The notes: a model not told the origin generated them from the letters alone. A stretch of DNA of 36,051 nucleotides from a virus (IMGVR_UViG_2579778871_000005), one strand, 5' to 3'; counted from the first letter of the stretch, positions 5,992 to 33,206 are shown. Numbers and translations: made by a program.

Positions 5992-6341
5992 ACCACCTCC
6001 GTTTCATTAATGACGCCATCAGCGGCACGCCACTGGATGCGCAGCGTGAGATGTTCGCCGTCCAGTTCCGGCACCACTTTCAGAAATTTGCAGCGCGGCT
6101 CCCATTGACGAATAGCCTCCACCGACTCACGCACCACATGCGGAATCGCCCGTTCAGCAGGCCAGTCGATATAGCGCCACAGGTCGCTGCCGAAAAAGGG
6201 ACGATGGGGATCGCTGCCGCGCGGTGTGCGCAGAATGATGTGAACGGCCTGGCTGATATCATCCAGCCCGCAGACGTATTCGCCGTCGCGTTTCAGGGCC
6301 GGTTGCCAGTGCAGATTTAAAGGATGGGATTGTGTGCTCAT
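5982..6341 (-). CDS. Baseplate wedge protein, P2 gpW / T4 gp25-like
   Basis: 119-aa ORF (MSTQSHPLNLHWQPALKRDGEYVCGLDDISQAVHIILRTPRGSDP...) of the size and position of gpW-family proteins. Confidence 0.65.
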   Translation of the reverse strand: MSTQSHPLNLHWQPALKRDGEYVCGLDDISQAVHIILRTPRGSDPHRPFFGSDLWRYIDWPAERAIPHVVRESVEAIRQWEPRCKFLKVVPELDGEHLTLRIQWRAADGVINETEVVWR

Positions 6342-6386
6342 GGGGGCATTGTCGCCCCCGGTGCTACAGCGCGGTATTAAACCGCT

Positions 6387-6878
6387 TTAATGAGAGTGAT
6401 GGTTGGTATTGCCGCCTGCGTCGATGATAGTGCCTGACGCATTGATATTGCCGTTAACCTGAATATTGCTATTAATCGTGGTCAGCGGTGCGGTAATAGT
6501 GATACTGGTTTTCACCTCAATCACGATTTTTTCAATGCCGCCATTAACGGTAAGTTGGTGCTGTTTGCGATCATACTCAATCGCGGCCTCATCGGAGAAC
6601 CTCACATAGCGCTTGTCTTTGTCAGTCACCGGCGGCGTATCGACCGACGAATAGACAGCCCCCAGCACCACGCCATCCTCGCCGTTATCATCCAGCAGAA
6701 CCTCCACCTGCTCGCCAATATCCGGGAGCCAGTAGTCCTTATTGTCCTGTGTATTGCGTTGCAGGATGGGGAGCCAGTTGGTACGCAGATCGTCGCATTC
6801 CGGCAGGGTGACGCGCACACACACCTTCACTTCGTCGATATCGCTGATAATACCGGTCTGTCGGGTTACGCCTTTCAT
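6387..6878 (-). CDS. Baseplate spike/assembly protein, P2 gpV-like
   Basis: 163-aa ORF upstream of the W-like gene with a beta-rich, repeat-like C-terminus (..ITITAPLTTINSNIQVNGNINASGTIID..) typical of spike proteins. Confidence 0.6.
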   Translation of the reverse strand: MKGVTRQTGIISDIDEVKVCVRVTLPECDDLRTNWLPILQRNTQDNKDYWLPDIGEQVEVLLDDNGEDGVVLGAVYSSVDTPPVTDKDKRYVRFSDEAAIEYDRKQHQLTVNGGIEKIVIEVKTSITITAPLTTINSNIQVNGNINASGTIIDAGGNTNHHSH

Positions 6879-9182: not shown

Positions 9183-11944
9183 TACGCATACTCCCGGCGT
9201 TCACGACGCGCCATAATCCGCTCCATCATCTTCTCCAGTTCGTGCAGGCTCAGTTTCAGCGCAGAAGTGATTTCGCCTTCGGTAGCCGATGCCGCGCCCT
9301 TGATAGTAATTTGCGGCGCAAAGGTCACATTCACCCCGGATGACTGCCCCGGTACATGCACACTGGCATTGCGCCCTTTGGCGGCAGGAGCATTACTTTT
9401 TGGTAGTTCAGGAACGGCAGGCGCGGCGGCTTTCGGTGGCACTGGCGGAAGCGGTTTGGGGCGGGATAACACTGCGCCCGCTGCTCCGGCCAGCGCCATA
9501 CCCGCCGCAGAGGGCGCAGGCGGTGCGGCTTTCGACAGCAGTGGATTGAACTGGGGAGCGATGACGCCCGTCACTGGCGCAATCTTTGGTATCGGAGCAA
9601 CATCCAGCCCCGGTACGCTGATATCCGGCAGTGGAGGAATTAACGCCGCCGCCATTTGCTGACTGGCGGAAATCGCATCCGGGGCGGTGCGGTTGATACC
9701 AATAGCGGCCCCTTGCGCGATATTATCGCCGAACCCGGCAAAGACCTGGCTGGGGGAGTGAATACCCAGCGTCTCTTTAAACCAGCCGGAAATGGAGTTA
9801 CCAAAATTGACGACCGTCTCTTTCGCGGCGGTCAGCGCATTGCCGATACCGTTCACCAGACCGTTAATCAGATTGCCGCCAAAATCGGTAAAGTTCTTCG
9901 GCATATCGATACCGAAGTATTTCATCACCCCGGCAAAGGCTTTACAGAACAACCCCAGCGGCGACCAGTTCATAATTAATCTGCCGACGCCCGCGATACC
10001 GCCAGAAAACGCGGTCTTAATCTGTGCCCAGATACCGGAGAACCAGCCTGTCACGCCGCTCCAGATACCTTTGATGCCGCTCCATGCCCCGCGAAACGCT
10101 ACCGTGACCTGCGCCCACAGCCGTTTAAAGAAAGCGGATATTGGCCCCCAGTAGCGATAAATCAGATACGCGGCCACGGCGATGCCGGTGATGATTAACC
10201 CGATGGGATTCATCAGCAGCGCACGGCCAAGAAACAATACCGCCCGTCCGGCCATCATCAGACCACGCAGCAGCCCACTGCCCAGAATTTTTGCCAGCTT
10301 TAAAGCGCTACGTCCCAGTGAAGTTAGCATCCGCGTTACCACATGGAATCTGCCCCCTGTCGAAAATGCGACTTTAAGGAACAACCAGCGGGTCCTTAGT
10401 AGTTCAACGGCTTTGATACAGTCAGCAAAGGGAGAAAGCATTAAGTTCAGCGCCAGTTTGCAGCCCACCGTTGCCGCTTTAAAGGCAATAAATCCAGCGA
10501 GTAGTTTGGCAACCGTCGCGACCATCTCCGGGTTTGCCGCGAGCCATTTACTGAACGAATCCAATACGGGTAACAGACTTTCCGATAATTCAACCAGTGC
10601 CGGGCGAAGCGAACTACCTATGCTGATTGCAATTTCATTCATCGCAACTTGAGATTTTCGCCACCGGGCTTCCAGCGTGTTATTTTGTTTACCAAAGTCG
10701 GTATCCAACGCATTTTGCGATCCAGGATCACTCATCTGGGCCTTATTAGACTGATATTTATCCCAGTTCTGCCGCATCGAAAGTAGATGATTGACGGTCT
10801 GAATATCGGTAAACACCTCTGACAGACCGAACGACTCCATCAATTTTTGCTGTGCTTCGCCGTCACCGCTTGCGCCAGCTTCCTGCCACTGCTTAATAAA
10901 TGCATCACCTTTTCCCTTAATAAAGCGATCCGCAATCATCAAGGAAGCTTCATATTGTGAATAACCTTTGGCGACGTAATCCTGCATTGACGCCTCATAG
11001 TCTACGCCCGCTTTTTCATATTTCTTAACGGTGTCACCGCGCGTCATTGCAGCCATCCAGTTAGTCATATTGGTCACAGCTTCTTCTGCTGAACCTGAAC
11101 CTTTTGCTGCCTCAAGAGATGCAACGATCTCCTTAATTGCCTCCGGCCCGGTAATGCCTTTGGCGGCAAAGCTTTTCGCCAGGGTGGGGAGAGCTTTAGC
11201 CATATCCTTTAATTCAAAGGAACCGGTCTTTGCACCGACGGCTGCCATTGCAAAGGCTTCTTCCATCTCCTTACCATCACCAATCTTCAGCGCATCGCTG
11301 AATGCATATGTCATCTTCGCCAGATCGGTCATATCGGCTTTGGTGGCGGTGGCCGTTTTACCGAGTAATTCCACCATGCCAGCTGCTTTTTCAGGATTCA
11401 TACCGTCTGCAACCAGTTGATTCACACCGCCGAGCAGTGTTTCCTGCAGTTGGTTTACCTGGCCCGCGGCCTGACGGATGGCATTACCAATAGCCACTTC
11501 CTGTTTATCATTAAGGTTGCCTGTGACGGCGATATCCCGTAAGCCGGACTCAAATCCTGCGTAGGTCTTAACAGACGATACGAACGGAGCCGACATTGTT
11601 CTTGCAAGGGCATAGGTTTCTGCCCCCTGGGCATACAGATTCATCCGCTGATTGCGTAAGGCCTGACTACGCGCGGCAGATGCTGACAATCTTGCCTGTT
11701 GATTCTGTAACTGCTGGAGAGTGCGTGAAACACGCTGTAAATCAGCGTTCAACCTGTTCGCTACGCTCCCCCCCAAATGACCGTAACGGGCAAGAGCGTC
11801 GTTCAGGGCGTTCTGTTGAGTGCGTAACCGCTGTGTTGATCTGCCTAAATCGGTTAACGCGCTGCGCGTTCCCCCCATTGCAGAACGAAACGCCCCGCTA
11901 ATTGCACCACCAATCAGAACACTAATTGAAAGATCTGCGGCCAC
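9182..11944 (-). CDS. Tail tape measure protein
   Basis: 920-aa ORF, Ala/Gly-rich with coiled-coil-like N-terminus and internal hydrophobic segments, between the tail tube/chaperone and baseplate genes. Confidence 0.85.
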   Translation of the reverse strand: MAADLSISVLIGGAISGAFRSAMGGTRSALTDLGRSTQRLRTQQNALNDALARYGHLGGSVANRLNADLQRVSRTLQQLQNQQARLSASAARSQALRNQRMNLYAQGAETYALARTMSAPFVSSVKTYAGFESGLRDIAVTGNLNDKQEVAIGNAIRQAAGQVNQLQETLLGGVNQLVADGMNPEKAAGMVELLGKTATATKADMTDLAKMTYAFSDALKIGDGKEMEEAFAMAAVGAKTGSFELKDMAKALPTLAKSFAAKGITGPEAIKEIVASLEAAKGSGSAEEAVTNMTNWMAAMTRGDTVKKYEKAGVDYEASMQDYVAKGYSQYEASLMIADRFIKGKGDAFIKQWQEAGASGDGEAQQKLMESFGLSEVFTDIQTVNHLLSMRQNWDKYQSNKAQMSDPGSQNALDTDFGKQNNTLEARWRKSQVAMNEIAISIGSSLRPALVELSESLLPVLDSFSKWLAANPEMVATVAKLLAGFIAFKAATVGCKLALNLMLSPFADCIKAVELLRTRWLFLKVAFSTGGRFHVVTRMLTSLGRSALKLAKILGSGLLRGLMMAGRAVLFLGRALLMNPIGLIITGIAVAAYLIYRYWGPISAFFKRLWAQVTVAFRGAWSGIKGIWSGVTGWFSGIWAQIKTAFSGGIAGVGRLIMNWSPLGLFCKAFAGVMKYFGIDMPKNFTDFGGNLINGLVNGIGNALTAAKETVVNFGNSISGWFKETLGIHSPSQVFAGFGDNIAQGAAIGINRTAPDAISASQQMAAALIPPLPDISVPGLDVAPIPKIAPVTGVIAPQFNPLLSKAAPPAPSAAGMALAGAAGAVLSRPKPLPPVPPKAAAPAVPELPKSNAPAAKGRNASVHVPGQSSGVNVTFAPQITIKGAASATEGEITSALKLSLHELEKMMERIMARRERREYA

Positions 11945-11982
11945 GTTTTACACTCCCGAAAACCACACGAAAAAGAGGCGTT

Positions 11983-12261
11983 ATGAACAACGCATTAGCT
12001 TTGTTTAAAGGACTATTGATCGCTGCGATTGTGGTGGTAGATGGCTGGGCGCTATTTCAGGTGGTCAGCTACACCTTACAGAATTGCCATAATGGACTGG
12101 CGATTGTGTTAATGATTGGTGTGGGCAGCATTGGCGTCCTGTTACTGACAGCCCTGATGGCCTGGGTAATACAGCCCGCCGTTTATTTACTGACTTTCCT
12201 GTTTGCCATTATCGGCGGTATTACCGAATGGGTACTCAACCGCCGCCGCTCTCACGCTTAA
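11983..12261 (+). CDS. Small membrane protein (about 3 TM helices), transcribed antisense to the tail operon
   Basis: ORF 11926..12261 plus; likely ATG at 11983 preceded by AAGAGG (11973-11978); product MNNALALFKGLLIAAIVVVDGWALFQ... is strongly hydrophobic; fills the gap between the chaperone and tape measure genes where no minus-strand ORF of 60 aa or more exists. Confidence 0.45.
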   Translation: MNNALALFKGLLIAAIVVVDGWALFQVVSYTLQNCHNGLAIVLMIGVGSIGVLLLTALMAWVIQPAVYLLTFLFAIIGGITEWVLNRRRSHA

Positions 12262-12335: not shown

Positions 12336-12653
12336 CTAAACCACCGCGCCAGCAGTGCCATCGCCTGCCACAGTTGCTGCGGATTCGCCGCCCAGCCCAA
12401 GCATGTCCTGAAATCGTTTCTGCAGTGCCTGATAATCAGCCAGATCCATTTCAGCCAGGTCTTCCGGCACCAGCCCGGTCATTGCCGCTAACAGCGGCTC
12501 GTCCCAGTCTTCCGGCTTATCGCTGATACGCCGCGCCGCGCGCATATCTTTCACCTTCAGGCGAGTGAGTTGCAGCTCGTCGATGCGCTGCCCGGAGGGC
12601 GCGGTGAAAGGGTATTGCAGTTTGAAAGTGTTTTTCATGGTGACTGTCCTCAT
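12336..12653 (-). CDS. Tail assembly chaperone (P2 gpE-like), putative; start uncertain
   Basis: 105-aa ORF directly downstream of the tail tube gene, the usual chaperone position; no frameshift-extension ORF detected by eye. Confidence 0.45.
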   Translation of the reverse strand: MRTVTMKNTFKLQYPFTAPSGQRIDELQLTRLKVKDMRAARRISDKPEDWDEPLLAAMTGLVPEDLAEMDLADYQALQKRFQDMLGLGGESAATVAGDGTAGAVV

Positions 12654-12717
12654 CGAATGATGAGGACAGTATTGAGGAGGGAATAAACAAACAGTATTAA
12701 ACGGCTTTAATGAGCGG

Positions 12718-15781: not shown

Positions 15782-16122
15782 CAGGCCCCGCGCAGAATGC
15801 GCACCGTATCGCCCGCCTGCGTTGCCGCATCCAGCGCGATTCCGGCGACAGCATTGCTGCCCGTTTTCGCAATGGCGCGGCCTCCAGCGTCGGACTGGAC
15901 GGATGCACCGGCTTCAATCGCTGCGCCTGCTTCAACAGCAATAATCCCCAGCACATTGACGCCAACGGCGTCCTCTGCGTTGGCATCGGTTTCCGCGACG
16001 CCGAGAACGGCTTTACCCGCCGCGCAGACCTTGCCGTCGAAGCCGACAAAGTGCTGCTGGAGAATGATGTCAACGGCAACGACAGTGGTGGTCAGAATGA
16101 CCTGTTGAGTGACGGCCATCAT
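15781..16122 (-). CDS. Ala/Gly/Val-rich small protein after the major capsid gene
   Basis: 113-aa ORF whose start overlaps the capsid stop (ATGA at 16119-16122). Confidence 0.45.
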   Translation of the reverse strand: MMAVTQQVILTTTVVAVDIILQQHFVGFDGKVCAAGKAVLGVAETDANAEDAVGVNVLGIIAVEAGAAIEAGASVQSDAGGRAIAKTGSNAVAGIALDAATQAGDTVRILRGA

Positions 16123-17057
16123 GCACCTCCTTTGAGGCCAGAGAGCAGGAACCCGGCGTCAGAACCAACCACGACCACCTTATAGATATCGGTATAACGA
16201 CAGTGATGGACTTTACCGCCCACTGCGTCGTACTGATCGATAACAGGCATCCCCTTGCGGCGGAAGGTATAGCCGAACGACGGCTCATTCTCATCAGCCG
16301 ACGTCGCGCCCCCCTGCGGCGGCGTGACGTAGTGGCCCATCAGGTTGTCTTTCCAGAGGTCTGCGGTTTTGCCGTCTTTACCCAGCGATACCGGGTTACC
16401 GACTACGATTTCATCCACACCGAACAGTTCTTTGAGGATATCGGTGGTAATAATCTTGCGTTCGTTCGCGCCGATAGCAGCCTGAATCACCGGGTGGAAT
16501 TTCAGCAGCGTCATCACCGATGCGCCCATCGTGATAATGTTCGGGCGCAGGCCTACGTTATTACGCACTGCATCCATATGGGTCTCAACGTCGCGCAGCG
16601 GGTCGCCGTGACCGTTAGCCCAGCAGTCCGCCGCAGTGAAAGCCTTTTTCGCATTGGACTTGTAAATCTTCGCATCCTGCGCCAGCGCAGCCGCATAAAC
16701 TTCACGGCGCAGCAGGATGCCATTGGTGGCGCGGCGGGTAGCTTTTGCCTCTTCGTCGAAGATACTCTCCGCGCTCTCGCGATAATCCACCGGCACGGCC
16801 AGATCGTGTTCATCCAGCACAATATCCACCGAACCGGTCTTCTCGCGGATCATGACGTTACTGTCAGCCCCCACGGCGCGTTTCGTCTCATAGACCGCAA
16901 ACACGCCGTTGCCAAACGTCGGCACCGTTGCACCTTCTTTCTCCATTTCCACAATCGGGAAAATCTTCTCCCCGATAAACGCCGCGTTCTTATAACCACG
17001 CGCAACGGTGGTCAGAATAGGGTTAACGACGCGTTTACCCTGTAAATGATTTGGCAT
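16119..17057 (-). CDS. Major capsid protein, Mu gpT-like
   Basis: 312-aa ORF following the protease/scaffold gene; size, position and general composition match Mu-type major head subunits. Confidence 0.75.
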   Translation of the reverse strand: MPNHLQGKRVVNPILTTVARGYKNAAFIGEKIFPIVEMEKEGATVPTFGNGVFAVYETKRAVGADSNVMIREKTGSVDIVLDEHDLAVPVDYRESAESIFDEEAKATRRATNGILLRREVYAAALAQDAKIYKSNAKKAFTAADCWANGHGDPLRDVETHMDAVRNNVGLRPNIITMGASVMTLLKFHPVIQAAIGANERKIITTDILKELFGVDEIVVGNPVSLGKDGKTADLWKDNLMGHYVTPPQGGATSADENEPSFGYTFRRKGMPVIDQYDAVGGKVHHCRYTDIYKVVVVGSDAGFLLSGLKGGA

Positions 17058-17068
17058 TCTTTTCTCCT

Positions 17069-18160
17069 TTATAAGCAGCGTTTAACGGCGGCTTCGTAGC
17101 TGATGCCTTCCGCTTTCGCCAGCGCCACGGCCTTGTTATGCACCGCCAGTTGCTCCGGGTCGGCATCGGCAAAATCGACGGTGCGCACGGTATCGCGGCT
17201 GGCGCGGTCTTTGCTGGCAACTTCGCCGAAGTCCAATACCGGCGCAGCACTCGTCAGCAGTTCTTTAAACGCCGTCGCCAGCGGTTTCTTCACATCGCCC
17301 TCGGCGAACTCCACCGGCGCATCGCCTTTGCTTACTTCATCCAGCAGCGCGACGACCACGCCTTTAGCCGCAGGCGTCAACTTGCCGCCGGTCACCAGTT
17401 CCTCGGCAAAGGAAACATTGGTGGTGTGCAGTTCGTCGGCACGGCGTTTTACATCAGCTTTCGCGCGGTCAGCAGCGTCGGCTTTCAGGCGGGCGTTCTC
17501 TTCGCGCATCGCCTTAATTTCTTCTTCAGTCACGGATTTCTCCTTTGGTTCAGGTTTTGGCTCACTGAAAGCCGGGTCGGGTTTGGGGTCATCACGCTGC
17601 GCCTCATCGCGTAGCGCATCGATTTGCCAGGACGGCAAAACGCTGTCGGCCTCGTCGAGGCTGAACTTGCTGATCAGGAAATCGCGCAGGCGGGCAAACA
17701 TCCCTGCGCTGGTTGAAAGTCCCCAGTCGGCGAACTCGACCACGCCTTCCTCCTGCTCGCTGAACTCGACGGGTTTTAAGCCTTTTACGGCAGGCGGTTG
17801 TGCGCCAAGAAAGCCAACATGGCGCAGATACAACGAACCGGGCTTCGGGTTATTGGGCGAATCAGGCAAATAGAACGAGGCCGAAATTTTCTTGTAGCGC
17901 CCGGCTCCAACCAGTTCGACGAACGCCGGATCTACCTGGTCAGGCTCGGCCTGCAAATCATCCTGCGAGGCGGTTAACGACTTCACCCAGCCATAAGCCG
18001 GGGCGTCATGCGTCGGATGGCCGATAACCAGCGGCGCTTCATGTACCGCCGGATCATAAGCGGCTGCACAAGCAGCCAGCTCAGCCGATGTGAACGGCAT
18101 CCGCTTACCGTTCATCGCGGTATGCGTGCCGGATTTAAAGATATGAATGGATGCGGGCAT
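17069..18160 (-). CDS. Head protease/scaffold protein, Mu gpI-like
   Basis: 363-aa ORF upstream of the capsid gene; N-terminal domain followed by a charged coiled-coil/Pro-rich linker (..KPDPAFSEPKPEPKEKSVTEEEIKAMREENARLKADAADRAKADVKRRADE..). Confidence 0.65.
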   Translation of the reverse strand: MPASIHIFKSGTHTAMNGKRMPFTSAELAACAAAYDPAVHEAPLVIGHPTHDAPAYGWVKSLTASQDDLQAEPDQVDPAFVELVGAGRYKKISASFYLPDSPNNPKPGSLYLRHVGFLGAQPPAVKGLKPVEFSEQEEGVVEFADWGLSTSAGMFARLRDFLISKFSLDEADSVLPSWQIDALRDEAQRDDPKPDPAFSEPKPEPKEKSVTEEEIKAMREENARLKADAADRAKADVKRRADELHTTNVSFAEELVTGGKLTPAAKGVVVALLDEVSKGDAPVEFAEGDVKKPLATAFKELLTSAAPVLDFGEVASKDRASRDTVRTVDFADADPEQLAVHNKAVALAKAEGISYEAAVKRCL

Positions 18161-18338
18161 ATTCCCTCCGTAGTACGTCAGGGAATAGCTTTATAAAAAC
18201 GGGCGAAAATCGCTTTTAAAGCGCTTTAATCACTGCGGGGAAGTAGAGGATAAAAAGCGGGGCGTAAAGGGCTTTATAAATCTTTATAAAGCGGGTCAGG
18301 CGATCAGACCGGGCATTCGCCCGGCCTGGAGAAACATC
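18161..18338 (-). promoter_or_regulatory. Candidate late promoter/activator-binding region upstream of the protease-capsid operon
   Basis: Only sizeable gap in the head cluster; five copies of a GCTTTWWAA-type motif (CTTTATAAA at 18189-18197, 18272-18280, 18282-18290; related copies near 18212-18230) plus palindrome TTAAAGCGCTTTAA; GGAGGG ribosome-binding site before the ATG at 18160 on the minus strand. Confidence 0.4.
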
Positions 18339-18788
18339 TTATCTACGTGCCGCTGATTCGAGATGACGCAGAATAGTATCTAAAACCGACAGTTTGGCCT
18401 CGACAGACAGCTCACCCTGTTCATCAACCGGCAGATAGGGGCGAGCGGGTAGCGTTACAGCGCGTTTACGTCCAGCCTTACCACCTTTCTGGTGAATGGC
18501 CGCATAAGCCAGGTTGCTACCAATAGCAACATGCGATTCTCCGTAATCGGTGGTGACGGATCTCGCCAGATGCCCGCTATCCTGGAGAGTCTGACCACCG
18601 CGTGCCTGCGCTGCCAGTGAGGGGGGCCACGGTGGGTTACCCTCATCTTCGAAGTTGTACTGCGTCTCTGCCAGCAATGCCCCGGCTATTTTACGCATCG
18701 CAGGGGTTAAATCCTGACAGGACATTTCCAGGCTATGTAAGGCGCTCTGTAGAGCGCGGTCATCAAAACTGATGGCATTCATCGTCAT
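18339..18788 (-). CDS. Virion morphogenesis protein, Mu G-like
   Basis: 149-aa ORF downstream of the F-like gene with coupled start/stop; size and position as Mu G. Confidence 0.55.
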   Translation of the reverse strand: MTMNAISFDDRALQSALHSLEMSCQDLTPAMRKIAGALLAETQYNFEDEGNPPWPPSLAAQARGGQTLQDSGHLARSVTTDYGESHVAIGSNLAYAAIHQKGGKAGRKRAVTLPARPYLPVDEQGELSVEAKLSVLDTILRHLESAARR

Positions 18789-24839: not shown

Positions 24840-25130
24840 CTACAGCCCCATCGCCACGGACAGACACACCGCCGCGACAATCACGGCCCGGCGTAGCATC
24901 GCGGCGGAAAAGAGACGTTGTTCATCTTCCGCTGACTGAAAATAATTGGGCCGCGCATAGGGAAACAGGCTGCGATCCAGCCAGTAACCCAGCACCGCCG
25001 CCAGTGAAATCAGGCTTAGTTTGTAGATGACAACCGGGAGTTGCTGCGGGGAAATCAGGGCAATCAGTGCGAACAGCACCACCGATGCCACCAGCCAGCC
25101 GGATAAACGCGGGAAAAGAGAATTTTTCAT
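24840..25130 (-). CDS. Holin candidate (small protein with three hydrophobic segments)
   Basis: ORF 24840..25142; ATG at 25130 preceded by GGAGG; 96 aa; directly upstream of and abutting the endolysin gene. Confidence 0.5.
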   Translation of the reverse strand: MKNSLFPRLSGWLVASVVLFALIALISPQQLPVVIYKLSLISLAAVLGYWLDRSLFPYARPNYFQSAEDEQRLFSAAMLRRAVIVAAVCLSVAMGL

Positions 25131-25195
25131 AAGTGCCTCCATTGGGTGATGAAGGCAGTGTGGGGGATGGCTGGCAGGAAGGCTTTTAAAGGGGT

Positions 25196-26404
25196 TTAAG
25201 GAGTGGGCTTATTGCTCAAGTGATGCCACCATGACATCACTTTTGTAACCAAGGTATTCCATGTTTCAGGGTATGTGCAGTATAGGTAAATTAATCCTGT
25301 CGATATAATAGCGACAACAAGGAACATAATGATAAACCAGAACGCAATAACCTGACGGCAAAGACGTTTACGTACAGAGCAAAAGATACTATCAATGTCA
25401 TTTTTTATTGATGCATACTTTTTATCAACCTGAGTCTTTTTATGTCGAAGTTCTTCTTTGATAGCGGTTAACGTCTGTAACTGGTTGAACAAAGTCAACA
25501 TAACCAACGTAGCAAAAACAAAGGCCCCTAAAAAAACTGCGCTATTGATAATGGTTTGATAGACATCACCACTTGCTTTCTTGATTTGTGTCGCGACGAT
25601 AATGGTTGCGACTGGGATACCCAGTATCTGGTTTTGGATATCTGAAAAGACTTTGTGGATACGTCCCATTTCTTCAACTTTGGCGGTTCTAAGTTCATCC
25701 AGAACCTTTTCGTATGAGAACCCAGAAGTGAAGAGGCGATAACCCTTATCGAACTCAACTTTTAATTTTTCAATGTTCTTCAGTGCATACTCAAAGACTT
25801 TATTGTTTTCCGTTTCCTGACCGATTAACTGGATGCTTTCAATTAAAAGGGAGAGTTTCTGCTCTTTGTGTGTGTCGTCAGAAAACTGCTGAATGAGTTC
25901 ATCGAGTGTCGTTTTATCAAGATTTTCTACGGTTTCTGCACTGTAACGTATAGGTAATTTAAATACATCGGCACGGAAAAAAACGCATTCATATGCTCTG
26001 GTATCAAAGTATGCCGACTTTTCTTTAAGCAGGCGCAGAAATGTTAAGATAGTGCGGTAGTTTTCAATTACGGATGTTGGCGCATCCGAACTATAAAATT
26101 GGCTGTCGATCAGGTAGTATCGGGAAGGTTCCTCGCTTTGGTGTTTTGGCGACTTTAACAAAGCCGCCAAATTACGGCATAGCAGACCTAGCTTTGTCTT
26201 TGGGGCGTTCACAAATAGCGACACCTGCTGACCAGGTTCTACTTCGCCTTGTGCCAGAGAGATCCCATATGTATCAGTGTCCTCAAGCAAGGTGTTGAGC
26301 AACTCGCAGGATTCTGGGGTAAGCACCAGCGTACCTTCGGCCATATCGTTACCGAAAGTAATCTGCCTGTACAATCCCACCAGCTGCTCAAAACTGATAC
26401 TCAC
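25196..26404 (-). CDS. Cargo protein of unknown function with ~330-aa soluble N-terminal region and two C-terminal TM helices
   Basis: 402-aa ORF; its start overlaps the stop of the NdpA-like gene (ATGA at 26401-26404); C-terminal hydrophobic helices (..TIINSAVFLGAFVFATLVMLTLF.. and ..VIAFWFIIMFLVVAIISTGLIYLY..); AT-richer than the phage backbone by eye. Confidence 0.75.
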   Translation of the reverse strand: MSISFEQLVGLYRQITFGNDMAEGTLVLTPESCELLNTLLEDTDTYGISLAQGEVEPGQQVSLFVNAPKTKLGLLCRNLAALLKSPKHQSEEPSRYYLIDSQFYSSDAPTSVIENYRTILTFLRLLKEKSAYFDTRAYECVFFRADVFKLPIRYSAETVENLDKTTLDELIQQFSDDTHKEQKLSLLIESIQLIGQETENNKVFEYALKNIEKLKVEFDKGYRLFTSGFSYEKVLDELRTAKVEEMGRIHKVFSDIQNQILGIPVATIIVATQIKKASGDVYQTIINSAVFLGAFVFATLVMLTLFNQLQTLTAIKEELRHKKTQVDKKYASIKNDIDSIFCSVRKRLCRQVIAFWFIIMFLVVAIISTGLIYLYCTYPETWNTLVTKVMSWWHHLSNKPTP

Positions 26405-27432
26405 TCCTCAACCTCATCCAGTATCTCTTCCCTGAAGCTATCAGGAATATTCCTTAGAATGATTACATCCTGATCACGATTATACTCAATTGAACCATCT
26501 ACAAGACCGACACGATCAAACTTTAGTTCCCAATAATTAGACTTTCCTTTAAAGGAAATGATTCCTTTTAGTACGCGTCCATCAGGGACAAAACCATCCG
26601 ACAGTTCCAGTTCTTGGTTGGCTAGTTTAGTCGAGAGTAGTTCTGGTTCTTGTGGCCAGACCGCATTCACAAAGGTTGTCAGATCTACAGGCTCACCATC
26701 TTTGCTCAGTTGCTTCAAATGGTCATGTGCAGTTTGCAGAAAAGCCTCTCGATGTGCGGGGTCAAGCCCTTGCTCAGTCGCAAATTCTTTCAACGCATCC
26801 CGCAATTTCTCCGTTTCACGCTTGGCGATCAAAACATCGTTACAGCCCAGGAATTGCTTAAAGTAACCAGATACAGCATTACTCCCCTTCAGGAAACTTA
26901 TATAACGTTCGGCACCTGATTGCCAGGACGTAATGTCAATACGCCCCGCCACACGTAGCTTGTCGATATCAAGGTAGACACTTTCTTGGATAGCAAAGGC
27001 ATCGTTAACCGCAGTACCCGTCGTGGGACTTAACATGGCAACTAAAATATGCTCGTGTTGATTCATCGTAATGTGGGCGAATAGAACATAGCCACCAGTA
27101 GCGAGTGGTGTTGTTTGAATTCGAGATTCCAAATGACGAATCATACGGCAGGAGCTACGGTAAAAATTATCAGGATGCTCCTGAGCTAAATAGTCTGATA
27201 CAATTGTTTGCATCGGGTAATTATCTGGGTCATCTTCAAAATGGCCATAGCCTTTCCCCATTCGCCCTGCATATTTCCCACAGATATCATCGATTAAGCG
27301 TTGTGATGCTGCGGTGACACCGCTCTCTGTTGGACTTAGCTGTAAGGATGTCACCCCATGCGGTTCTTTATCTAAAAGATGAACAACCACATGATTTACA
27401 ACGATTGCATTTGCAGGTTCATTTGCTGGCAT
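26401..27432 (-). CDS. NdpA/YejK-like nucleoid-associated protein homolog (diverged)
   Basis: ORF 26401..27483 (first codon GTG); likely ATG at 27432. Segment GGYVLFAHITMNQHEHILVAMLSP...RIDITSWQSGAERYISFLKGSNAVSGYFKQFLG aligns with E. coli YejK as I recall it ([24 protein letters not shown]...[37 protein letters not shown]). Confidence 0.65.
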   Translation of the reverse strand: MPANEPANAIVVNHVVVHLLDKEPHGVTSLQLSPTESGVTAASQRLIDDICGKYAGRMGKGYGHFEDDPDNYPMQTIVSDYLAQEHPDNFYRSSCRMIRHLESRIQTTPLATGGYVLFAHITMNQHEHILVAMLSPTTGTAVNDAFAIQESVYLDIDKLRVAGRIDITSWQSGAERYISFLKGSNAVSGYFKQFLGCNDVLIAKRETEKLRDALKEFATEQGLDPAHREAFLQTAHDHLKQLSKDGEPVDLTTFVNAVWPQEPELLSTKLANQELELSDGFVPDGRVLKGIISFKGKSNYWELKFDRVGLVDGSIEYNRDQDVIILRNIPDSFREEILDEVEE

Positions 27433-27509
27433 AGAATCTGAAACCTTCAGTAGAGTTAGATAGTAAATGCATGCTGTCTGCACGCTTTTTGGTTTTGTTT
27501 ACAACATGT

Positions 27510-28031
27510 TTAATCTTGCCTTGGACACATCCAGTAATCCTCATCCGGCTCTGGCGAGTAAACCATCAGGCACCCTTCGCGCGGCGGCTTCTTATCAGAA
27601 GTCATAGGAACTTTTTCTTTATCCAGTTTCACAACCAGATCCCCACCCGGTACATCCGCTTTATCGAAGCAGACAGACTGGCAGGCAGATTTTGAAATCT
27701 TTACTTCGTGGGTATTATTGGAGATGAAAAGGAAGCAGGTATGACCGGAGGCAGTGTAATTACCTGGTATGTCGTTTTTATCTTTTACGTGAAACTCGAC
27801 CGTCGTAACGGGACGTTGGCTATCATCGTAGACCTTGAACGAATCGAAGTTTGTCGCGTACTTATCCAGACCTGGGCACTGTTGACGAATAAACGGCAGT
27901 TCACGTTTTACTACCGGATTATCGGACTCAACCTTAAATGTAGTAGGGACAGGAGATGGTGCGGCATTATCATCACCACACCCAACCATTAGCAGAGCAC
28001 TTACCCCCAGAGGTAAAAGAAAGTGCTTCAT
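27510..28031 (-). CDS. Cys-rich lipoprotein of unknown function (possible exclusion protein)
   Basis: 173-aa ORF with signal peptide and lipobox (MKHFLLPLGVSALLMVGC); AAGGA ribosome-binding site before the ATG at 28031; same strand as and downstream of the repressor. Confidence 0.7.
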   Translation of the reverse strand: MKHFLLPLGVSALLMVGCGDDNAAPSPVPTTFKVESDNPVVKRELPFIRQQCPGLDKYATNFDSFKVYDDSQRPVTTVEFHVKDKNDIPGNYTASGHTCFLFISNNTHEVKISKSACQSVCFDKADVPGGDLVVKLDKEKVPMTSDKKPPREGCLMVYSPEPDEDYWMCPRQD

Positions 28032-28589: not shown

Positions 28590-28775
28590 ATGACAACCGA
28601 TCAGGTCAAAGCCCTCTTTCGTCAGCGCGGCGTTACCTTTACCCGCTGGGCAGAAGATAACGGTTACACCCGCAATGAGGTGTATCGCGTGCTTAATGGT
28701 CAGTCAAAAGCCAACTACGGAAAGGCGCATGAGATTGCCGTCAAACTTGGCCTTAAGTCCGGCATCGCCGCCTAG
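28590..28775 (+). CDS. Ner/Cro-like small DNA-binding protein (first early gene)
   Basis: 61-aa ORF opening the rightward operon opposite the repressor; HTH-like pattern (..RQRGVTFTRWAEDNGYTRNEVYRVLNG..). Confidence 0.5.
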   Translation: MTTDQVKALFRQRGVTFTRWAEDNGYTRNEVYRVLNGQSKANYGKAHEIAVKLGLKSGIAA

Positions 28776-28836
28776 ATTTTACAGTAAGTGTAACAGCGTT
28801 TCACATACAGAAAAGAGGCAACACAGGATAATCGTT

Positions 28837-29076
28837 ATGAAACCTACCGATTTAACCCCCGGCCAGCGCGTACTGATTACACCAGAGCTTGGCCCGAAAA
28901 CCCCGCTTCACGGTACTTTTCTCCGCCGCGTTCCGCGCCAGTGTGGTCGGGCGGCTTACAGCGTTTTTCGCATTGATGAATTTGTCGAGCAGAACGGGCC
29001 AGACGATAAAGGAGACACCCCGATGTCGGATTCCTGCATTTCCCGTCGGGTACAACCACTGGAGGTGCGTACATGA
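28837..29076 (+). CDS. Hypothetical early protein
   Basis: ORF 28675..29076; likely ATG at 28837 (MKPTDLTPGQRVLITPELGP...); stop overlaps the next start. Confidence 0.4.
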   Translation: MKPTDLTPGQRVLITPELGPKTPLHGTFLRRVPRQCGRAAYSVFRIDEFVEQNGPDDKGDTPMSDSCISRRVQPLEVRT

Positions 29077-29369
29077 AGGCTTCTACCTCCGGCGCACGCA
29101 TCCTTCGCGTACTCAAAGCCCTGAAAGGCTACTCGCTCACCGGGCTGTCCAATGGCGAACTAGCGGCGGCGTTGCATGAATCCCCGGCCAATATCACTCG
29201 TGCCGCTGACACTCTGATCGAAGAGGGCCTGGTACAACGGCTGGAAAATGGGCGCTTTGCCATGAGCATGGCGATGCTACAAATCGCCCACGCTCATGCG
29301 ACAGAAGTCACCCGCGCTCAGGACAGACTAAAAGAAATGAATCAACGCCTGCTGGCTGGCAGTCGATAA
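29073..29369 (+). CDS. Winged-helix DNA-binding protein, putative early regulator
   Basis: 98-aa ORF (..ILRVLKALKGYSLTGLSNGELAAALHESPANITRAADTLIEEGLVQR..), a pattern typical of winged-helix transcription factors. Confidence 0.45.
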   Translation: MKASTSGARILRVLKALKGYSLTGLSNGELAAALHESPANITRAADTLIEEGLVQRLENGRFAMSMAMLQIAHAHATEVTRAQDRLKEMNQRLLAGSR

Positions 29370-29379
29370 GGAGTAAGCA

Positions 29380-30330
29380 ATGGCACGTCAAAAATCACAA
29401 CCCGCCGAACTGGTGCCGGATGCGCCGCTGGACGCCGAACTGAACGTCGGACTGAATGCGCTGGCGGAACACCGCATTGAGATTATGCAACAGTTCGGTG
29501 ACGGCCTGCCGTATGAGCGTGACCGCGTGGTGCATGAGGCACGGTTTTATATGTCGCAGAGCGCCGAGGCAATGCTGGAAGCGGGTAAGCGGCTGGTGAT
29601 ACTGAAAGAGAATGAACCGCATGGGGAGTTCACGGCAATTGTCACTGAACAGTTGGGGCTAGGTGACCGGGCTGCACGCCGTATGATGCAGGCGTCTATT
29701 AAGTACCTTTCACCTACGCTTGAGTCAAAACGGCCAACGTTGGCCGTTTTGGGTAAGGCTAAATTATTTGAACTGGTATCAGAGGATGACGAAGACCTTA
29801 CAGCATTAGCCGAAGGCGGCACCGTCGCTGGCCTGACACTGGACGACGTAGATCGCATGAGCTGCCGCGAACTCCGCGCCGCTCTGCGTGAAGCCCGCGA
29901 GGACGCCGACGCCCAGCGCCGCGTTCTGTCCGATAAGAATGACAAAATTGACAAACTCTCCACCCTGCTCGCCAAAAAGTCCCGAATCGCGCCGCCGCCC
30001 CCGGATGTAGAGGACGAGCAGTTGCGTAAGGAAGTCATGGCTATCGCCTTCGAAGCTGAAGCCATTATTCGCGGCAAGCTCTATGAGGCCTTCACCGTAT
30101 TGAATCAGCATCATTCGGAACTGGTTCAGACGCATCCCTACGCCTTTATGACGGGCCTGCTGTGTCAGATTGACAGCGCCACCACCTATCTGCGCGAAGA
30201 GTTTGGCCTTGCTGCTGAACCACGCAGTGACGCCGCGCCGGAGTGGGTAACAGACCCCACGCCAGAGATTGATCGCCCGGAATGGATGAATGCTTCAGAT
30301 TCAGAACCTGTTCAGGCGGATTGTATATGA
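29380..30330 (+). CDS. DUF3102-like early protein
   Basis: 316-aa ORF directly upstream of the transposase; motif ..GKRLVILKENEPHGEFTAIVTEQLGLGDRAARRMMQAS.. matches the pattern I associate with DUF3102 proteins of Mu-like phages. Confidence 0.55.
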   Translation: MARQKSQPAELVPDAPLDAELNVGLNALAEHRIEIMQQFGDGLPYERDRVVHEARFYMSQSAEAMLEAGKRLVILKENEPHGEFTAIVTEQLGLGDRAARRMMQASIKYLSPTLESKRPTLAVLGKAKLFELVSEDDEDLTALAEGGTVAGLTLDDVDRMSCRELRAALREAREDADAQRRVLSDKNDKIDKLSTLLAKKSRIAPPPPDVEDEQLRKEVMAIAFEAEAIIRGKLYEAFTVLNQHHSELVQTHPYAFMTGLLCQIDSATTYLREEFGLAAEPRSDAAPEWVTDPTPEIDRPEWMNASDSEPVQADCI

Positions 30331-32072
30331 GCGCCGTCATGACCGAACGCTTAGTTGCTTTTGCTCAGGCTGCGCGGCAGGCCGGGCATGGTACACGAGG
30401 CGCAATCTATGCTGCCGCCTGCGCGGAGTTGGGCCTTTCCCGCGCCACGCTGTTACGCAAAATCAAGGAAGTCGCCGTGACTGATAATCGTAAGCGCAGA
30501 ACAGACGCAGGGAAAACCGCGCTGACCCGCGACGAGGCGGTGATGATATCCGCGACACTGATGGAAGCCACTCGTAAGAACGGCAAGCGCCTGTATTCCG
30601 TCGCCGACGCCGTGGAAATGTTACGCGCCAACAACGAAATTGACGCCGGGCGACTGGATGAAGAATCCGGTGAATGGATGCCGTTGTCGGAAAGCACCAT
30701 TATCCGGGCGCTACGCGGCTACGGCCTGCACCCGGATCAGCTCAGTCAGCCCGCGCCGGTGACGGAACTCGCCAGCCTGCACCCCAATCACGTCTGGGAA
30801 ATCGACGCCTCGCTCTGCACGTTGTACTACCTCAGCAATGGACAGCATGGCTTACAGGTGATGGACAGTTCGAAGTTCTACAAGAACAAGCCGAAGAATC
30901 TGCAACGTATCGCCAGTGACCGGGTATGGAGTTACGAACTGACCGACCACACCAGCGGCTGGATCTACGTTGAATACGTGATGGGCGCGGAGTCTGGCGA
31001 GAATCTTTGCTCAGTGCTGATAAACGCCATGCAGGAGCGCGGCGGCGCGGATGTGCTTCACGGCGTACCGCATATGCTGTATCTCGACCCCGGCTCGGCT
31101 AACACCGCGGCCATGACCAAAAACCTCTGCCGTTCGCTGGGCATTGACGTGGTAGCACATAAAGCCCACAACGCCCGCGCCACCGGGCAGGTGGAAAAGG
31201 CGCGTGACATTATCGAGCGCCGCTTTGAACCGGGGCTGAAGTTCCAACCGGTTCATAGTCTGGAGGAACTGAACGCCAAAGCGAAGCTGTGGCGGCAGCA
31301 CTTCAACGCCACCGCCATTCACACTCGCCACGGCAAGTCGCGTAGTAACGTCTGGATGACCATCACCACGCAACAGCTTATCAAAGCGCCATCGGTGGAT
31401 GTATGCCGCGAACTGGCCGTTGCCGCGCCGGAAAGCCGCAAGGTAACACCAAAGCTGCGCGTCTCCTTCCGGGGCGCTGAATATGATGTGTCGTCGGTGC
31501 CGGGTGTGATGGTGGGTGAGAAACTGATGATCACCCGCAATCCGTGGCGCACTGACGCTGCGCAGGTAGTTCTTATCGGCGACGATGGCCATGAGTATTT
31601 TCATCTGGTGGAAGAAGTTCGTAAGAATGAATACGGCTTTGCCCAGGATGCTGCGGTACTGGGCCAGAACCATAAGCGCCACGCCGATACACCAGCGCAG
31701 ACTGCTGCTAAACAAATTGAGCAGATTGTTACCGAAACGGATAACGAGACTGACGCAGCCGCTGCGCGTAAAGCGAAGGCGCTGCCGTTCGGCGGCAGGC
31801 TCGACCCGTACAAACCGATCACCGACAGCGAACTCCCCGCGTTCCTACCGCGTCGCGGCCAGGATTCTCTGGTACGCGCCCCACGTATTGAGGAAAGGCT
31901 TTTAACTCACGTTGAAGCTGCGAAGGCGCTGAAAGCGCGTCTGCCGGAATGGAGCGTAGCAGTGTATCAGGAACTGGTGAAACGCTGGCCAGAAGGCGTG
32001 GCGGAAGAAGAACTGGACGCCGCCGCGCAGCAGCTTACCGCCCGAGTGCAACTGAACGTAGTCGGTGGTTAA
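30327..32072 (+). CDS. DDE transposase (Mu A-like function, integrase-core fold)
   Basis: ORF 30282..32072; ATG at 30327 overlaps the upstream stop (ATGA); candidate catalytic residues in ..VWEIDASLC.., ..LYLDPGSANT.. and a downstream Glu; followed by an AAA+ ATPase gene, the transposase/ATPase pairing of Mu, IS21 and Tn7-type elements. Confidence 0.8.
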   Translation: MSAVMTERLVAFAQAARQAGHGTRGAIYAAACAELGLSRATLLRKIKEVAVTDNRKRRTDAGKTALTRDEAVMISATLMEATRKNGKRLYSVADAVEMLRANNEIDAGRLDEESGEWMPLSESTIIRALRGYGLHPDQLSQPAPVTELASLHPNHVWEIDASLCTLYYLSNGQHGLQVMDSSKFYKNKPKNLQRIASDRVWSYELTDHTSGWIYVEYVMGAESGENLCSVLINAMQERGGADVLHGVPHMLYLDPGSANTAAMTKNLCRSLGIDVVAHKAHNARATGQVEKARDIIERRFEPGLKFQPVHSLEELNAKAKLWRQHFNATAIHTRHGKSRSNVWMTITTQQLIKAPSVDVCRELAVAAPESRKVTPKLRVSFRGAEYDVSSVPGVMVGEKLMITRNPWRTDAAQVVLIGDDGHEYFHLVEEVRKNEYGFAQDAAVLGQNHKRHADTPAQTAAKQIEQIVTETDNETDAAAARKAKALPFGGRLDPYKPITDSELPAFLPRRGQDSLVRAPRIEERLLTHVEAAKALKARLPEWSVAVYQELVKRWPEGVAEEELDAAAQQLTARVQLNVVGG

Positions 32073-32081
32073 GGGGGAGTT

Positions 32082-33206
32082 ATGCAGATTAAACAACAGT
32101 TGCGCCAGCGTGGCATCACTCAGGCAGCAGTAGCACAGGCTACCGGGGTTTCCGCAGCGGTTATCGCGCAGATGGTTAATCACGGCCTGTGGCCGAAAAC
32201 AGAAGAACTACGGGAGCGCATCAGCGCATTTTTGGCAGAAAAAGGTATTGAACTGAAAGTGGGACAGGCAGCGGCCACTGCCTGCCCCGATACCGCATCC
32301 ACAAGGGACGAAAATATGTTACTGGCAAAACAGGTATTAAATCCAGCGGCGAAGAAACATTTTGGGCTGTTCCGCGACCCGTTCGCTGATGAAGTCATGC
32401 AGAGCGCGGACGATGTATTCACCACGCCGGATATCCGTTATGTGCGCGAGGCGCTGTACCAGACTGCGCGTCACGGCGGGTTTATTGCGGTGACAGGTGA
32501 ATCCGGCGCAGGGAAAACCACGCTGCGCCGTGACCTGGCTGACCGCATCAACCGCGAAAACGCGCCCGTTATCATCATCGAGCCGTATATCATCGCGATG
32601 GAAGACAACGACGCAAAGGGTAAAACCCTGAAAGCTGCCGCCATAGCAGAAGCCATCATCAACACCATCGCGCCGCTGGAGAACGTCAAACGCTCGCAGG
32701 AGGCGCGTTATCGCCAGTTGCACCGGGTGCTAAAGGAATCGGCCCGTGCCGGGTTCTCACATTGCCTTGTTATCGAAGAGGCGCACTCGCTGCCGGTGCC
32801 GACGCTCAAGCACCTGAAACGCTTCTTTGAGCTGGAAGATGGCTTTAAGAAACTGCTGTCGATAGTGCTGATTGGTCAGCCTGAACTGAAGCTGAAACTG
32901 TCCGAACGTAATCAGGAAGTGCGTGAAGTGGTTCAACGTTGCGAGGTTGTCGAACTGCTGCCGCTGGACAACTATCTGGAATCGTTTCTGGCGTTTAAAT
33001 TTCAGCGTGCCGGAAAAGGAGTTTCAGAGGTGCTGGATGATAGCGCCGCCGATGCTATCCGCGCCCGGCTGTGCAATTCATCCCGACGCGGTGACGTCAG
33101 TCTGCTGTACCCGCTGGCGCTGGGGAATCTGGTTATCGCTGCAATGAATCTGGCTGCTGATATCGGCGTACCCGTAGTGAATGCCGATGTGATTAAAGGA
33201 GTGTGA
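32082..33206 (+). CDS. Transposition ATPase (Mu B-like AAA+ protein) with N-terminal HTH
   Basis: 374-aa ORF; Walker A ..VTGESGAGKTTL.. and Walker B-like ..HCLVIEEAHSL..; N-terminal HTH-like segment (..LRQRGITQAAVAQATGVSAAVIAQMVN..). Confidence 0.8.
   Translation: MQIKQQLRQRGITQAAVAQATGVSAAVIAQMVNHGLWPKTEELRERISAFLAEKGIELKVGQAAATACPDTASTRDENMLLAKQVLNPAAKKHFGLFRDPFADEVMQSADDVFTTPDIRYVREALYQTARHGGFIAVTGESGAGKTTLRRDLADRINRENAPVIIIEPYIIAMEDNDAKGKTLKAAAIAEAIINTIAPLENVKRSQEARYRQLHRVLKESARAGFSHCLVIEEAHSLPVPTLKHLKRFFELEDGFKKLLSIVLIGQPELKLKLSERNQEVREVVQRCEVVELLPLDNYLESFLAFKFQRAGKGVSEVLDDSAADAIRARLCNSSRRGDVSLLYPLALGNLVIAAMNLAADIGVPVVNADVIKGV

Follow-up and report, generated by a model that had tools for sequence, protein, structure and literature searches.

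The gap between the G and I homologues of the prophage described here (18161-18338, 178 bp, read on the minus strand) is most likely the activator-dependent promoter of the capsid genes, the counterpart of P_I in a Mu-type prophage. We regard this assignment as highly probable because the composite of palindrome, spacer and hexamer that is found in the gap has a geometry matching that of the mapped Mu late promoters. The AT-rich CTTTATAAA-type repeats that share the gap with the palindrome are, to judge from their distribution among relatives, a separate conserved element and not a shared late signal.

The window, by which we mean the whole 36,051-nt stretch of DNA that was analysed, is recognizable as a BcepMu-type (Mu-like) transposable prophage of E. 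coli. Pfam matches are obtained for Mu F, G, portal, gp27, gp36 and GemA homologues, for a DDE transposase and for one Mor-family protein, and the DNA is identical to that of a prophage lying between ybjC and grxA in two complete E. coli genomes. Klebsiella KP12 and Escherichia PhiKM are the nearest phages, with Burkholderia BcepMu more distant; a search of IMG/VR for closer relatives returned only the window itself and one distant short contig (42% identity), and no closer relative. The prophage has its ends at ∼333 and ∼35669 and its centre near 18000. An early operon on the plus strand (∼28675-35610) encodes the DDE transposase, a MuB-like ATPase, GemA and the Mor-family protein, and the lysis, head and tail genes are all on the minus strand, from the holin (∼25130) down to com/mom (∼1330-497), a divergent arrangement of early and late genes that is also that of BcepMu. 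PADLOC, run on the low-GC cargo genes, gave 0 matches.

The G homologue (virion morphogenesis, 18339-18788, minus strand; Pfam Phage_tail_S, E 5.8e-29; 'phage virion morphogenesis protein' in PGAP) is the final gene of the upstream lysis/head-assembly block. The gene I homologue (protease/scaffold, 17069-18160, minus strand), which is 51-66% identical to its counterparts in KP12, PhiKM and BcepMu (gp32, 'Mu I equivalent'), is the first of the capsid block and is followed on its 3' side by the major capsid gene (16119-17057, minus strand, Pfam match). As with Mu mor, the Mor-family gene closes the early operon (35203-35610, plus strand; Pfam Mor PF08765, E 4.8e-39), and according to both Pfam and PGAP it is the sole member of its family in the prophage. 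The protein is about equally similar to Mu Mor (28% identity, BLASTP 5e-17) and to Mu C (29%, 9e-14), is 44% identical to BcepMu gp01, and is presumed to be the trans-acting partner of the late palindromes described below.

A sequence-only reading of this DNA had described five related copies of a 9-bp AT-rich motif and a palindrome in the only gap of the head gene cluster, and had proposed that a late promoter and its activator site are located there. The gap is indeed the sole sizeable non-coding stretch from the holin (∼25130) to the sheath gene (14651), and the palindrome, TTAAAGCGCTTTAA, is present in exact form at 18216-18229. As for the repeats, three copies of TTTATAAAG are exact (18290-18282, 18280-18272 and 18197-18189, minus strand), with no other exact copy among the 36,051 bases, and a count of five is reached only when degenerate relatives are included, namely CTTTAC at 18270-18265, CTTTTTATC near 18257 and the palindrome halves TTAAAG/CTTTAA. 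The copies lie 29-132 bp 5' of the ATG at 18160, and the first two form a 10-bp tandem repeat that creates the near-palindrome GCTTTATAAAGATTTATAAAGC (18292-18271). With up to one mismatch allowed the window has 14 matches to TTTATAAAG versus 5.6 expected, a number that was reached in 0 of 100 shuffles.

Of the two elements it is the palindrome that recurs. Exact TTAA-N6-TTAA is found 4 times in the window versus 0.32 times expected (4 reached in none of 100 shuffles), at 25186-25199, 18216-18229, 12697-12710 and 6377-6390, all of which are in late intergenic gaps of the minus strand, 5' of the holin, the protease-scaffold gene I, the tail chaperone and baseplate W, respectively. At each of the four sites a spacer of exactly 23 nt separates the dyad from a downstream hexamer whose second base is A and whose sixth is T (CACACT, AAAGCT, AATACT and GACAAT). 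The dyad in the G-I gap, which we call Box B, is one of these four exact sites and the predicted binding site of the Mor/C-family activator. The equivalent of P_lys (25157-25199, minus strand) has the dyad TTAAACCCCTTTAA (25199-25186), 23 nt and CACACT (25162-25157). A first putative tail promoter, in the gap between the tube and chaperone genes (12668-12710, minus strand), consists of TTAAAGCCGTTTAA, 23 nt and AATACT, and a second, 5' of baseplate W (6339-6390, minus strand), of TTAAAGCGGTTTAA, 23 nt and GACAAT (6353-6348), with an ATG (6341) only 6 nt beyond. The hexamer of the latter is flanked by GGGGGC and GCCCCC, and the mRNA is predicted to be leaderless; BcepMu has this second tail arrangement 5' of gp49.

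This distribution bears directly on what had been anticipated, namely that related motifs might be found at the lysis, tail and mom blocks. The palindrome does recur, once at the lysis block and twice in the tail region; none of these places has the 9-mer, and mom has neither element. Of the places that had been suggested for a motif search, the area of 25131-25195 contains the palindrome (25186-25199) and lacks the 9-mer, whereas upstream of 14651, where there is no gap before the sheath gene, and in 1334-1478, 5' of com/mom, no comparable dyad exists in the window, the latter region having a different palindrome. The recurrence of a motif at other late operon starts therefore holds for the palindrome, the CTTTATAAA-type 9-mer being confined to the gap, and it is the palindrome and not the AT-rich repeat that is, by this comparison, the signal common to the late operons. 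The tail palindromes at 12697-12710 (tube to chaperone) and 6377-6390 (V to W) are at sites that the earlier reading had not named.

The composite was also followed in relatives, using 26 G-homologue loci from species-representative genomes together with KP12, PhiKM, Phi06_2974B, BcepMu and Mu; the G-I gap is ∼200 bp in all of the relatives that were fetched. When 22 loci (477 kb) were searched for a dyad with at most one mismatch, 23 nt and nAnnnT, 72 composites were located on the late-gene strand and 12 on the opposite strand. Nearly every relative has a composite 5' of the holin, in the G-I gap and in the tube-chaperone gap, and BcepMu has an additional one 5' of W, so that the composite is seen at equivalent positions in ∼20 relatives ranging from Burkholderia to Photorhabdus. 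When the gap was aligned for 11 lineages, ranging from E. coli to Burkholderia and Neisseriaceae, invariance was limited to the blocks TTTATAAAG(..TT) and TAA..TTAAAA and to two hexamer bases, the A and the T. The dyad of the G-I gap is imperfect in most relatives, reading CTAAAGCAGATTAA or GTAAAGCCGATTAA, a point against the P_I reading. A literature search for the motifs found no relevant description.

In Mu, the binding sites of Mor and C are imperfect 16-bp dyads with their centre at -43.5, in promoters that have a -10 and no -35 element (PMC2582627, PMC4287176), and at Pm dimeric Mor is bound to a 16-bp dyad extending from -51 to -36, with neither a -35 nor an extended -10 (PMC4287176). 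Oligonucleotides published for the Mu promoters P_lys, P_I and P_P extend to 20 nt past the S1-mapped starts (PMC4461284), and from these we read ATAAY followed by 23 nt and TAGACT, CAAACT or TATCCT, with +1 at 7-8 nt past the hexamer. The right edge of the dyad is thus exactly 23 nt from a weak hexamer of the nAnnCT type in these Mu promoters as in those of the present family, where relatives have CAGACT, CAAACT, GATGCT and CATACT and where it is the enteric relatives that share this hexamer type with Mu, and in both cases several late operons share the module. The centre of the dyad in the window is 30.5 bp 5' of the first base of the hexamer, equal to the distance in the Mu late promoters. 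The predicted gap promoter has in common with Mu P_I its position between G and I, a Mor/C-family activator, a dyad that replaces the -35 and a T-tract in the spacer; the Mu annotation does place a late promoter between these genes, in agreement with the sequence-only reading. Its proposal of a late promoter with an activator site is thus upheld as far as the position and the dyad recurring at late operon starts are concerned, and fails in taking the 9-mer as the signal for the activator.

There are differences from Mu as well. The half-sites are those of TTAA-N6-TTAA here and of a GTTA/ATAAC-type C box in Mu. The late units are also placed differently, in that the tail chaperone and W each have a predicted promoter in front of them but mom has no recognizable one, with the proviso that the Mu promoters have been mapped and those of the window are predicted from sequence. 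No such dyad stands before com/mom, whereas the Mu mom promoter is C-dependent, an observation that runs against the P_I reading. Mu Mor drives one middle operon, which encodes C, while the Mor-like protein of the window seems to be the direct activator of four promoters of structural and lysis genes; as there is one Mor/C protein here, there is probably no separate middle step.

The spacing identical to that in Mu, the sole Mor-family protein and the position of Mu P_I together lead us to interpret the palindrome as the site of the activator. In the mechanism that we propose, the single Mor/C-family protein would, late in infection, bind as a dimer to the 14-bp dyad TTAAAGCGCTTTAA (18229-18216), which would occupy the place of a -35 element, centred ∼43.5 bp 5' of the predicted start. 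The activator would then enable sigma-70 RNA polymerase to use the weak -10 that is 23 bp downstream (AAAGCT or the overlapping TATAAA), with transcription expected to begin ∼8 nt further on, near 18179. The same dyad-23 bp-nAnnnT module would also head the lysis, tail chaperone/tape measure and baseplate units.

The core promoter (18187-18197, minus strand) comprises the T-tract and the third copy of TTTATAAAG, and the A and T of its hexamer are the invariant columns of the alignment. The existence of this third copy can be attributed to the conserved T-tract of the spacer running into an A-rich hexamer, which yields TATAAA. In the register of the family the -10 hexamer is AAAGCT at 18192-18187, 23 nt from the dyad, a poor match to TATAAT (2/6), whereas TATAAA at 18195-18190, 3 nt nearer the dyad, is the best -10-like hexamer in the gap; because this better hexamer is 3 bp closer, the geometry of P_I in the window may differ from that of the other three promoters. 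By analogy with Mu P_lys, P_I and P_P the predicted start falls within 18178-18183 (minus strand), at ∼18179 with AAAGCT or at ∼18182-18183 with TATAAA, and with 18179 we infer that the dyad is centred at approximately -43.5 (or -42.5 should the start be one base nearer the hexamer). A consensus scan of 17900-18600 found no sigma-70-type promoter with -35 and -10 elements.

The gap promoter would be a new addition to the well-known Mor/C class, and TTAA-N6-TTAA + 23 bp + nAnnnT would provide a late-promoter signature for the whole BcepMu group, whose prophages are common in Enterobacterales, Burkholderia and relatives. With it, late operons can be annotated and predictions made as to which cargo genes are exempt from late control. 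A single Mor/C protein also suggests a cascade of two steps, from early to late, as opposed to the three of Mu.

We turn now to the AT-rich repeat, Box A (18264-18292), which in the window is a 10-bp tandem duplication, GCTTTATAAAG-ATTTATAAAG-CC-CTTTAC, at the apex of a hairpin. The family element is yTTTATAAAG-(1-4 nt)-TTTAC, and TTTATAAAG followed by 1-4 nt and TTTAC is found once in the G-I gap of every relative, 48-91 nt past the stop of G in nearly all of them. TTTATAAAG is almost unique within each 20-kb locus, with a few relatives having one extra copy elsewhere, and the two tandem copies of the window are, on this evidence, a lineage-specific duplication of a single-copy Box A that is invariant in the family. 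An exact 16-mer search of IMG/VR for Box A gave at least 120 matches, 58 of which are in a G-I context, the others being in coding or AT-rich DNA and chance-like. Box A stands at the tip of an imperfect palindrome, and from one lineage to another the tip is constant and the outer arms change, the outer stems being GGGGCTGTA/TACAGCCCC in KP12 and CCCGTAAAG/CTTTACGGG, followed by TTTGGTT, in BcepMu. Three lineages have acquired ORFs between Box A and Box B, and in two of these an intact Box A is also preceded by a small ORF with a strong terminator. Since Box A persists despite inserts on both sides, its retention would seem to depend on neither neighbour, and a role as no more than the terminator of the G transcript is unlikely. 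Closer to G is a further inverted repeat, the hairpin H1 (18305-18328, minus strand), CAGGCCGGGC-GAAT-GCCCGGTCTG, which starts 11 nt past the G stop, is part of the MFE fold and has no U tract; enteric relatives have CGGGTGATT or CGGGCGATT at the same position, and CGGG[CT]GA[AT]T is found 15-16 nt past the G stop in 40 of 59 unique gaps. An Rfam scan of 17800-18700 gave no covariance-model match with E up to 1.

Several candidate roles for Box A were tried and rejected. It is not a promoter of the Box B class, since in relatives neither strand has a hexamer at the 23-nt distance, and the one arrangement of this kind in the window, TTATAAAGATTTAT + 23 nt + TATCCT, is a match with 2 mismatches, one among 35 such. 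As a constitutive sigma-70 promoter, TTTACA-N17-TTTAAT/TCTAAT of Erwinia and Photorhabdus is without A2 in the -10, a sigma-70 -10 at Box A is absent from KP12-type members, PhiKM, the window and the Burkholderia members, and the scans were empty. An IHF site is suggested by TATAAAGGCTTTA, which matches WATCAANNNNTTR at 8 of 9 positions, but this reading was rejected because the distance separating the halves varies from lineage to lineage by 1-3 nt. Box A bears no similarity to the terminal inverted repeats (TAATTGCT...), and was for this reason not taken to be an end-binding site of the transposase.

Of the roles that survive, a binding site for a protein that tunes P_I is the one we entertain first, as a tentative possibility. 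This might be the Mor-like activator bound in a different geometry, some other product of the phage or a nucleoid protein of the host, and Box A would then be an upstream site, auxiliary or repressing, of the late operon that is expressed most heavily. Nine bases are invariant and TTTAC is nearly so, even though the flanking proteins are 45-60% identical, and it is the apex and not the outer stems that is held constant between lineages. Box A and Box B have the sub-motifs TAAAG(C) and T(A/T)TAAAG in common, the GTAAAGYTTTATAA of beta-proteobacterial members is a near copy of GTAAAGCCGATTAA, and the 10-mer GCTTTATAAA of Box A is found again at the core promoter of the window. Against this reading, a -10-like hexamer 23 nt past Box A is lacking on both strands, and the variation of 1-3 nt between TTTATAAAG and TTTAC spoils an IHF-like match. 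The distance between Box A and Box B is 63-119 bp, with whole ORFs insertable between them, and such variability argues against a fixed cooperative geometry.

That Box A acts as RNA, as a terminator, 3'-end or processing hairpin that would end, stabilise or process the lysis/head-assembly transcript and split it from that of the capsid genes, we consider rather unlikely. Box A is always the apex of a palindrome whose outer stem changes in sequence from lineage to lineage, the RNA of the gap folds better than shuffled sequences (z -4.3), Mu has a predicted terminator in the same interval, and in the tube-chaperone gap of enteric relatives a canonical terminator is positioned directly 5' of the dyad. 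However, no terminator-like site is present in 17900-18600 of the window or in the Erwinia and Photorhabdus gaps, and the U tract is missing in most members; both H1 and the Box A hairpin lack it in the window, and TTTGGTT follows Box A in BcepMu-like members only. A plain hairpin would not need an invariant apex, TTTAC is conserved though its pairing partners differ by lineage, and two lineages (L116 and L132) already have a strong intrinsic terminator ∼50 nt 5' of an intact Box A.

Another role, which we likewise judge to be improbable, is that Box A and the GC-rich H1 make up a central topological site, the functional counterpart of the Mu strong gyrase site (SGS), alongside which the promoter would occupy the I-proximal half of the gap. 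In Mu and FluMu a gyrase site is located between G and I, near the centre of the genome (PMC10052514, PMC2628397), and the Mu annotation puts the cut site 20 nt past the G stop, upstream of P_I. The function envisaged is gyrase binding, or a bend at the tip of a supercoiled loop, that joins the prophage ends for replicative transposition. The G-I gap of the window is near the centre of a ∼36-kb transposable prophage, 160-340 bp from it, and BcepMu Box A is at 18739 of 36748, although such a central position may simply follow from conserved gene order. The layout of H1 and then Box A resembles that of the Mu SGS, where the cut ∼20 nt past the G stop is followed, towards I, by AT-rich palindromes flanked by GC runs. 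Box A is single-copy, palindromic as DNA and invariant across hosts, and has been kept where ORFs and a strong terminator were inserted on either side, but it is unlike known gyrase cleavage cores. Enteric relatives have GCGGGTGATTT 16 nt past the G stop, a 10/11 match to the Mu cut-site core GCGGCTGATTT; the match is inverted, at chance level and absent from beta-proteobacterial members, and as local alignments of the Mu G-I region with the window, KP12-type and BcepMu gaps are not significant (p 0.08-0.97) we take it as a lead only, there being no significant sequence similarity to the Mu SGS. The gaps of the window, of KP12-type members and of Erwinia, like that of Mu, have an A/T periodicity of 10-11.5 bp; in the window the period is 11.5 with p 0.001, a value obtained against a weak null of mononucleotide shuffles only, and for PhiKM, Xenorhabdus, Burkholderia and Neisseriaceae significance was not reached. 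Use of the W/S pattern of a published 133-bp gyrase consensus on Mu, BcepMu and the window left the Mu SGS outside the top matches, so that the positive control failed. That Box A, perhaps with H1, is a new cis-acting 'centre site' of BcepMu-type phages, an unrelated sequence that does the job of the SGS independently of the adjoining P_I, is a speculation to which we give little credence; were it true, Box A would organise the prophage as a supercoiled loop. An invariant element of 9-16 bp, at the centre of the genome and set apart from the promoter, does make a clear experimental target.

Finally, that the CTTTATAAA-type repeats are themselves the activator sites, with the promoter using the TATAAA of the third copy and the palindrome incidental, is very improbable: all three exact copies are in the gap and TATAAA (18195-18190) is its best -10-like hexamer, but the 9-mer is absent from the other late operon starts of the window, is single-copy in relatives and so cannot be a common late signal, its tandem pair is ∼90-110 bp 5' of the start, too far for a site of the Mor/C type, and recurrence, fixed spacing and conservation across the family all belong to the palindrome.

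For the gap as the P_I equivalent, with Box B as the predicted activator site, there is one further feature of note, a hairpin over the ribosome-binding site of gene I, TATTCCCT-N12-AGGGAATA (18160-18187, minus strand), in which TATTCCCT (18187-18180) pairs with AGGGAATA (18167-18160) at 8 of 8 positions. The 3' arm extends over GGAGGG (18169-18164), the Shine-Dalgarno sequence, and over the first base of the ATG. The 5' arm is placed past the -10 hexamer and ahead of the predicted start, and in every case it overlaps the last part of the hexamer together with the segment that leads up to that start. The equivalent hairpin in relatives is 96.6% paired, with 4 pairs changed on both sides, and its covariation score was reached in 0 of 500 shuffles, slid controls being 33-54% paired. 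In folding calculations on long and short RNAs, the RNA that is read in from upstream forms the hairpin (-11 to -24 kcal/mol), whereas RNA that is started at the promoter cannot. Because the 5' arm precedes the start point, the hairpin is expected to form solely on RNA read in from upstream. We infer that it would mask the ribosome-binding site on read-through RNA and that RNA started at the promoter would be open to translation.

A comparable hairpin fold is found at the lysis and tail promoters of the window and at Mu P_I, where the 5' arm also spans the start site. At the P_lys equivalent the hairpin GCCTTC/GGAGGC is over the Shine-Dalgarno sequence of the holin gene (ATG 25130), and at the first tail promoter the composite is followed by a 12-bp hairpin, again over a Shine-Dalgarno sequence (ATG 12638). 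The T4 lysozyme gene e and similar genes have a late promoter that starts inside a hairpin masking the ribosome-binding site. The likeness is that the hairpin on read-through RNA hides the ribosome-binding site, whereas RNA from the gene's own promoter is without the 5' arm and is translated, a scheme that for the present prophage is read from the sequence; phage, polymerase specificity and sequences all differ between the two cases. Unlike in T4, the design is repeated in enteric members at the first three late promoters (lysis, I and tail chaperone). Repetition of this kind suggests that the first gene of a late operon may be untranslatable from read-through RNA, which would bear on the silence of holin and capsid genes in prophages. 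In beta-proteobacterial members, and at the W promoter of the window, the hexamer is bracketed by inverted repeats and stands 6-7 nt ahead of the ATG, from which leaderless mRNAs are predicted for these promoters.

At the lysis, tail-chaperone and I promoters of the window a hairpin can be drawn around the predicted transcription start (minus strand, 25130-25162, 12636-12673 and 18160-18192, respectively), and one is also found at the P_I promoter of Mu (719-755 of the compared Mu locus). At all of these promoters and at the equivalent sites of the enteric relatives, including the KP12-type locus L012 and loci L014 and L018, the 5' arm of the hairpin falls after the -10 hexamer and before the predicted start, and the 3' arm lies over or beside the Shine-Dalgarno sequence. 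Judged from this placement, the structure could form solely on read-through RNA, and translation of the holin, capsid and tail genes may be prevented by it unless transcription starts from their own promoter.

The W promoter region of the window (6339-6353, minus strand) contains the hexamer GACAAT and an ATG that follows it by only 6-7 nt, and beta-proteobacterial relatives show the same short distance at their lysis, I and W promoters (for example L033, 30811-30825 and 18849-18866, as well as L024, a Chromobacterium prophage, L025 and L026). Because the ATG is so close to the hexamer, leaderless mRNAs are predicted both for W in the window and for the beta-proteobacterial lysis, I and W genes; in that case the start annotated for BcepMu gp32 (MMGAM...) would lie 12 nt further upstream than it should. 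At the W promoter of the window and at the beta-proteobacterial promoters inverted repeats are found on either side of the hexamer, as in GGGGGC-GACAAT-GCCCCC; a second example is CATGCCGCC-cGAAGAT-GGCGGCATG.

The TTAA-N6-TTAA dyad was not found upstream of com/mom in the window (1350-1394, minus strand). What precedes these genes is a perfect 16-bp palindrome, ACTGATGGCCATCAGT, at 1394-1379 on the minus strand. A T-tract and CATACT(G) come 23 nt after it, and the hexamer CATACT is of the type seen at enteric tail promoters. From the sequence, this could be a mom promoter under the control of a different or additional regulator. The com start given by PGAP, an ATG at 1388, falls within the palindrome, and the true start probably lies further downstream.

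In the enteric BcepMu-type prophages (loci L009-L022, position 10451) GCGGGTGATTT is fixed at 16 nt past the G stop, with CGGGCGAAT as its counterpart in the window (18320-18312), and the gyrase cut site of Mu, GCGGCTGATTT, is on the opposite strand, 20 nt past the Mu G stop (Mu 17875-17885); by unbiased alignment the match is not significant. In the KP12-type relatives (L012, 10419-10444) a hairpin that resembles a terminator and has AGTTTTGTCT as its tail overlaps the last codons and stop of G, and the window has no equivalent of it. The Chromobacterium prophage (L024, 10600-11000) and IMG/VR contigs L116 and L132 have additional ORFs (morons) inserted between Box A, the single-copy element of the G-I gap, and Box B, the dyad; in the two contigs a small membrane-peptide ORF with a strong terminator is also present after the G stop and ahead of Box A. 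In all three loci Box A is intact.

Between the repressor and holin genes lies a block of low GC content (25196-28031, 37-47% vs about 57%), on the same minus strand as the late genes and probably cargo. It encodes an NdpA-like nucleoid-associated protein (26401-27483, minus strand) and two further proteins, of 402 and 173 aa, that have no matches in Pfam or PADLOC; the 402-aa gene has a stop codon that overlaps the lysis-promoter dyad.

The probable ends of the prophage, which is inserted between grxA and ybjC, are at about 333 and about 35669, where the inverted terminal sequence TAATTGCT / AGCAATTA is found. Several genes are annotated as frameshifted or interrupted in the E. coli A35 copy (B-like ATPase, tape measure gene, gpD). 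The sole plus-strand gene within the late region of the window is an ORF at 11926-12261, between the tail-chaperone and tape-measure genes, which PGAP annotates as a 92-aa hypothetical protein.
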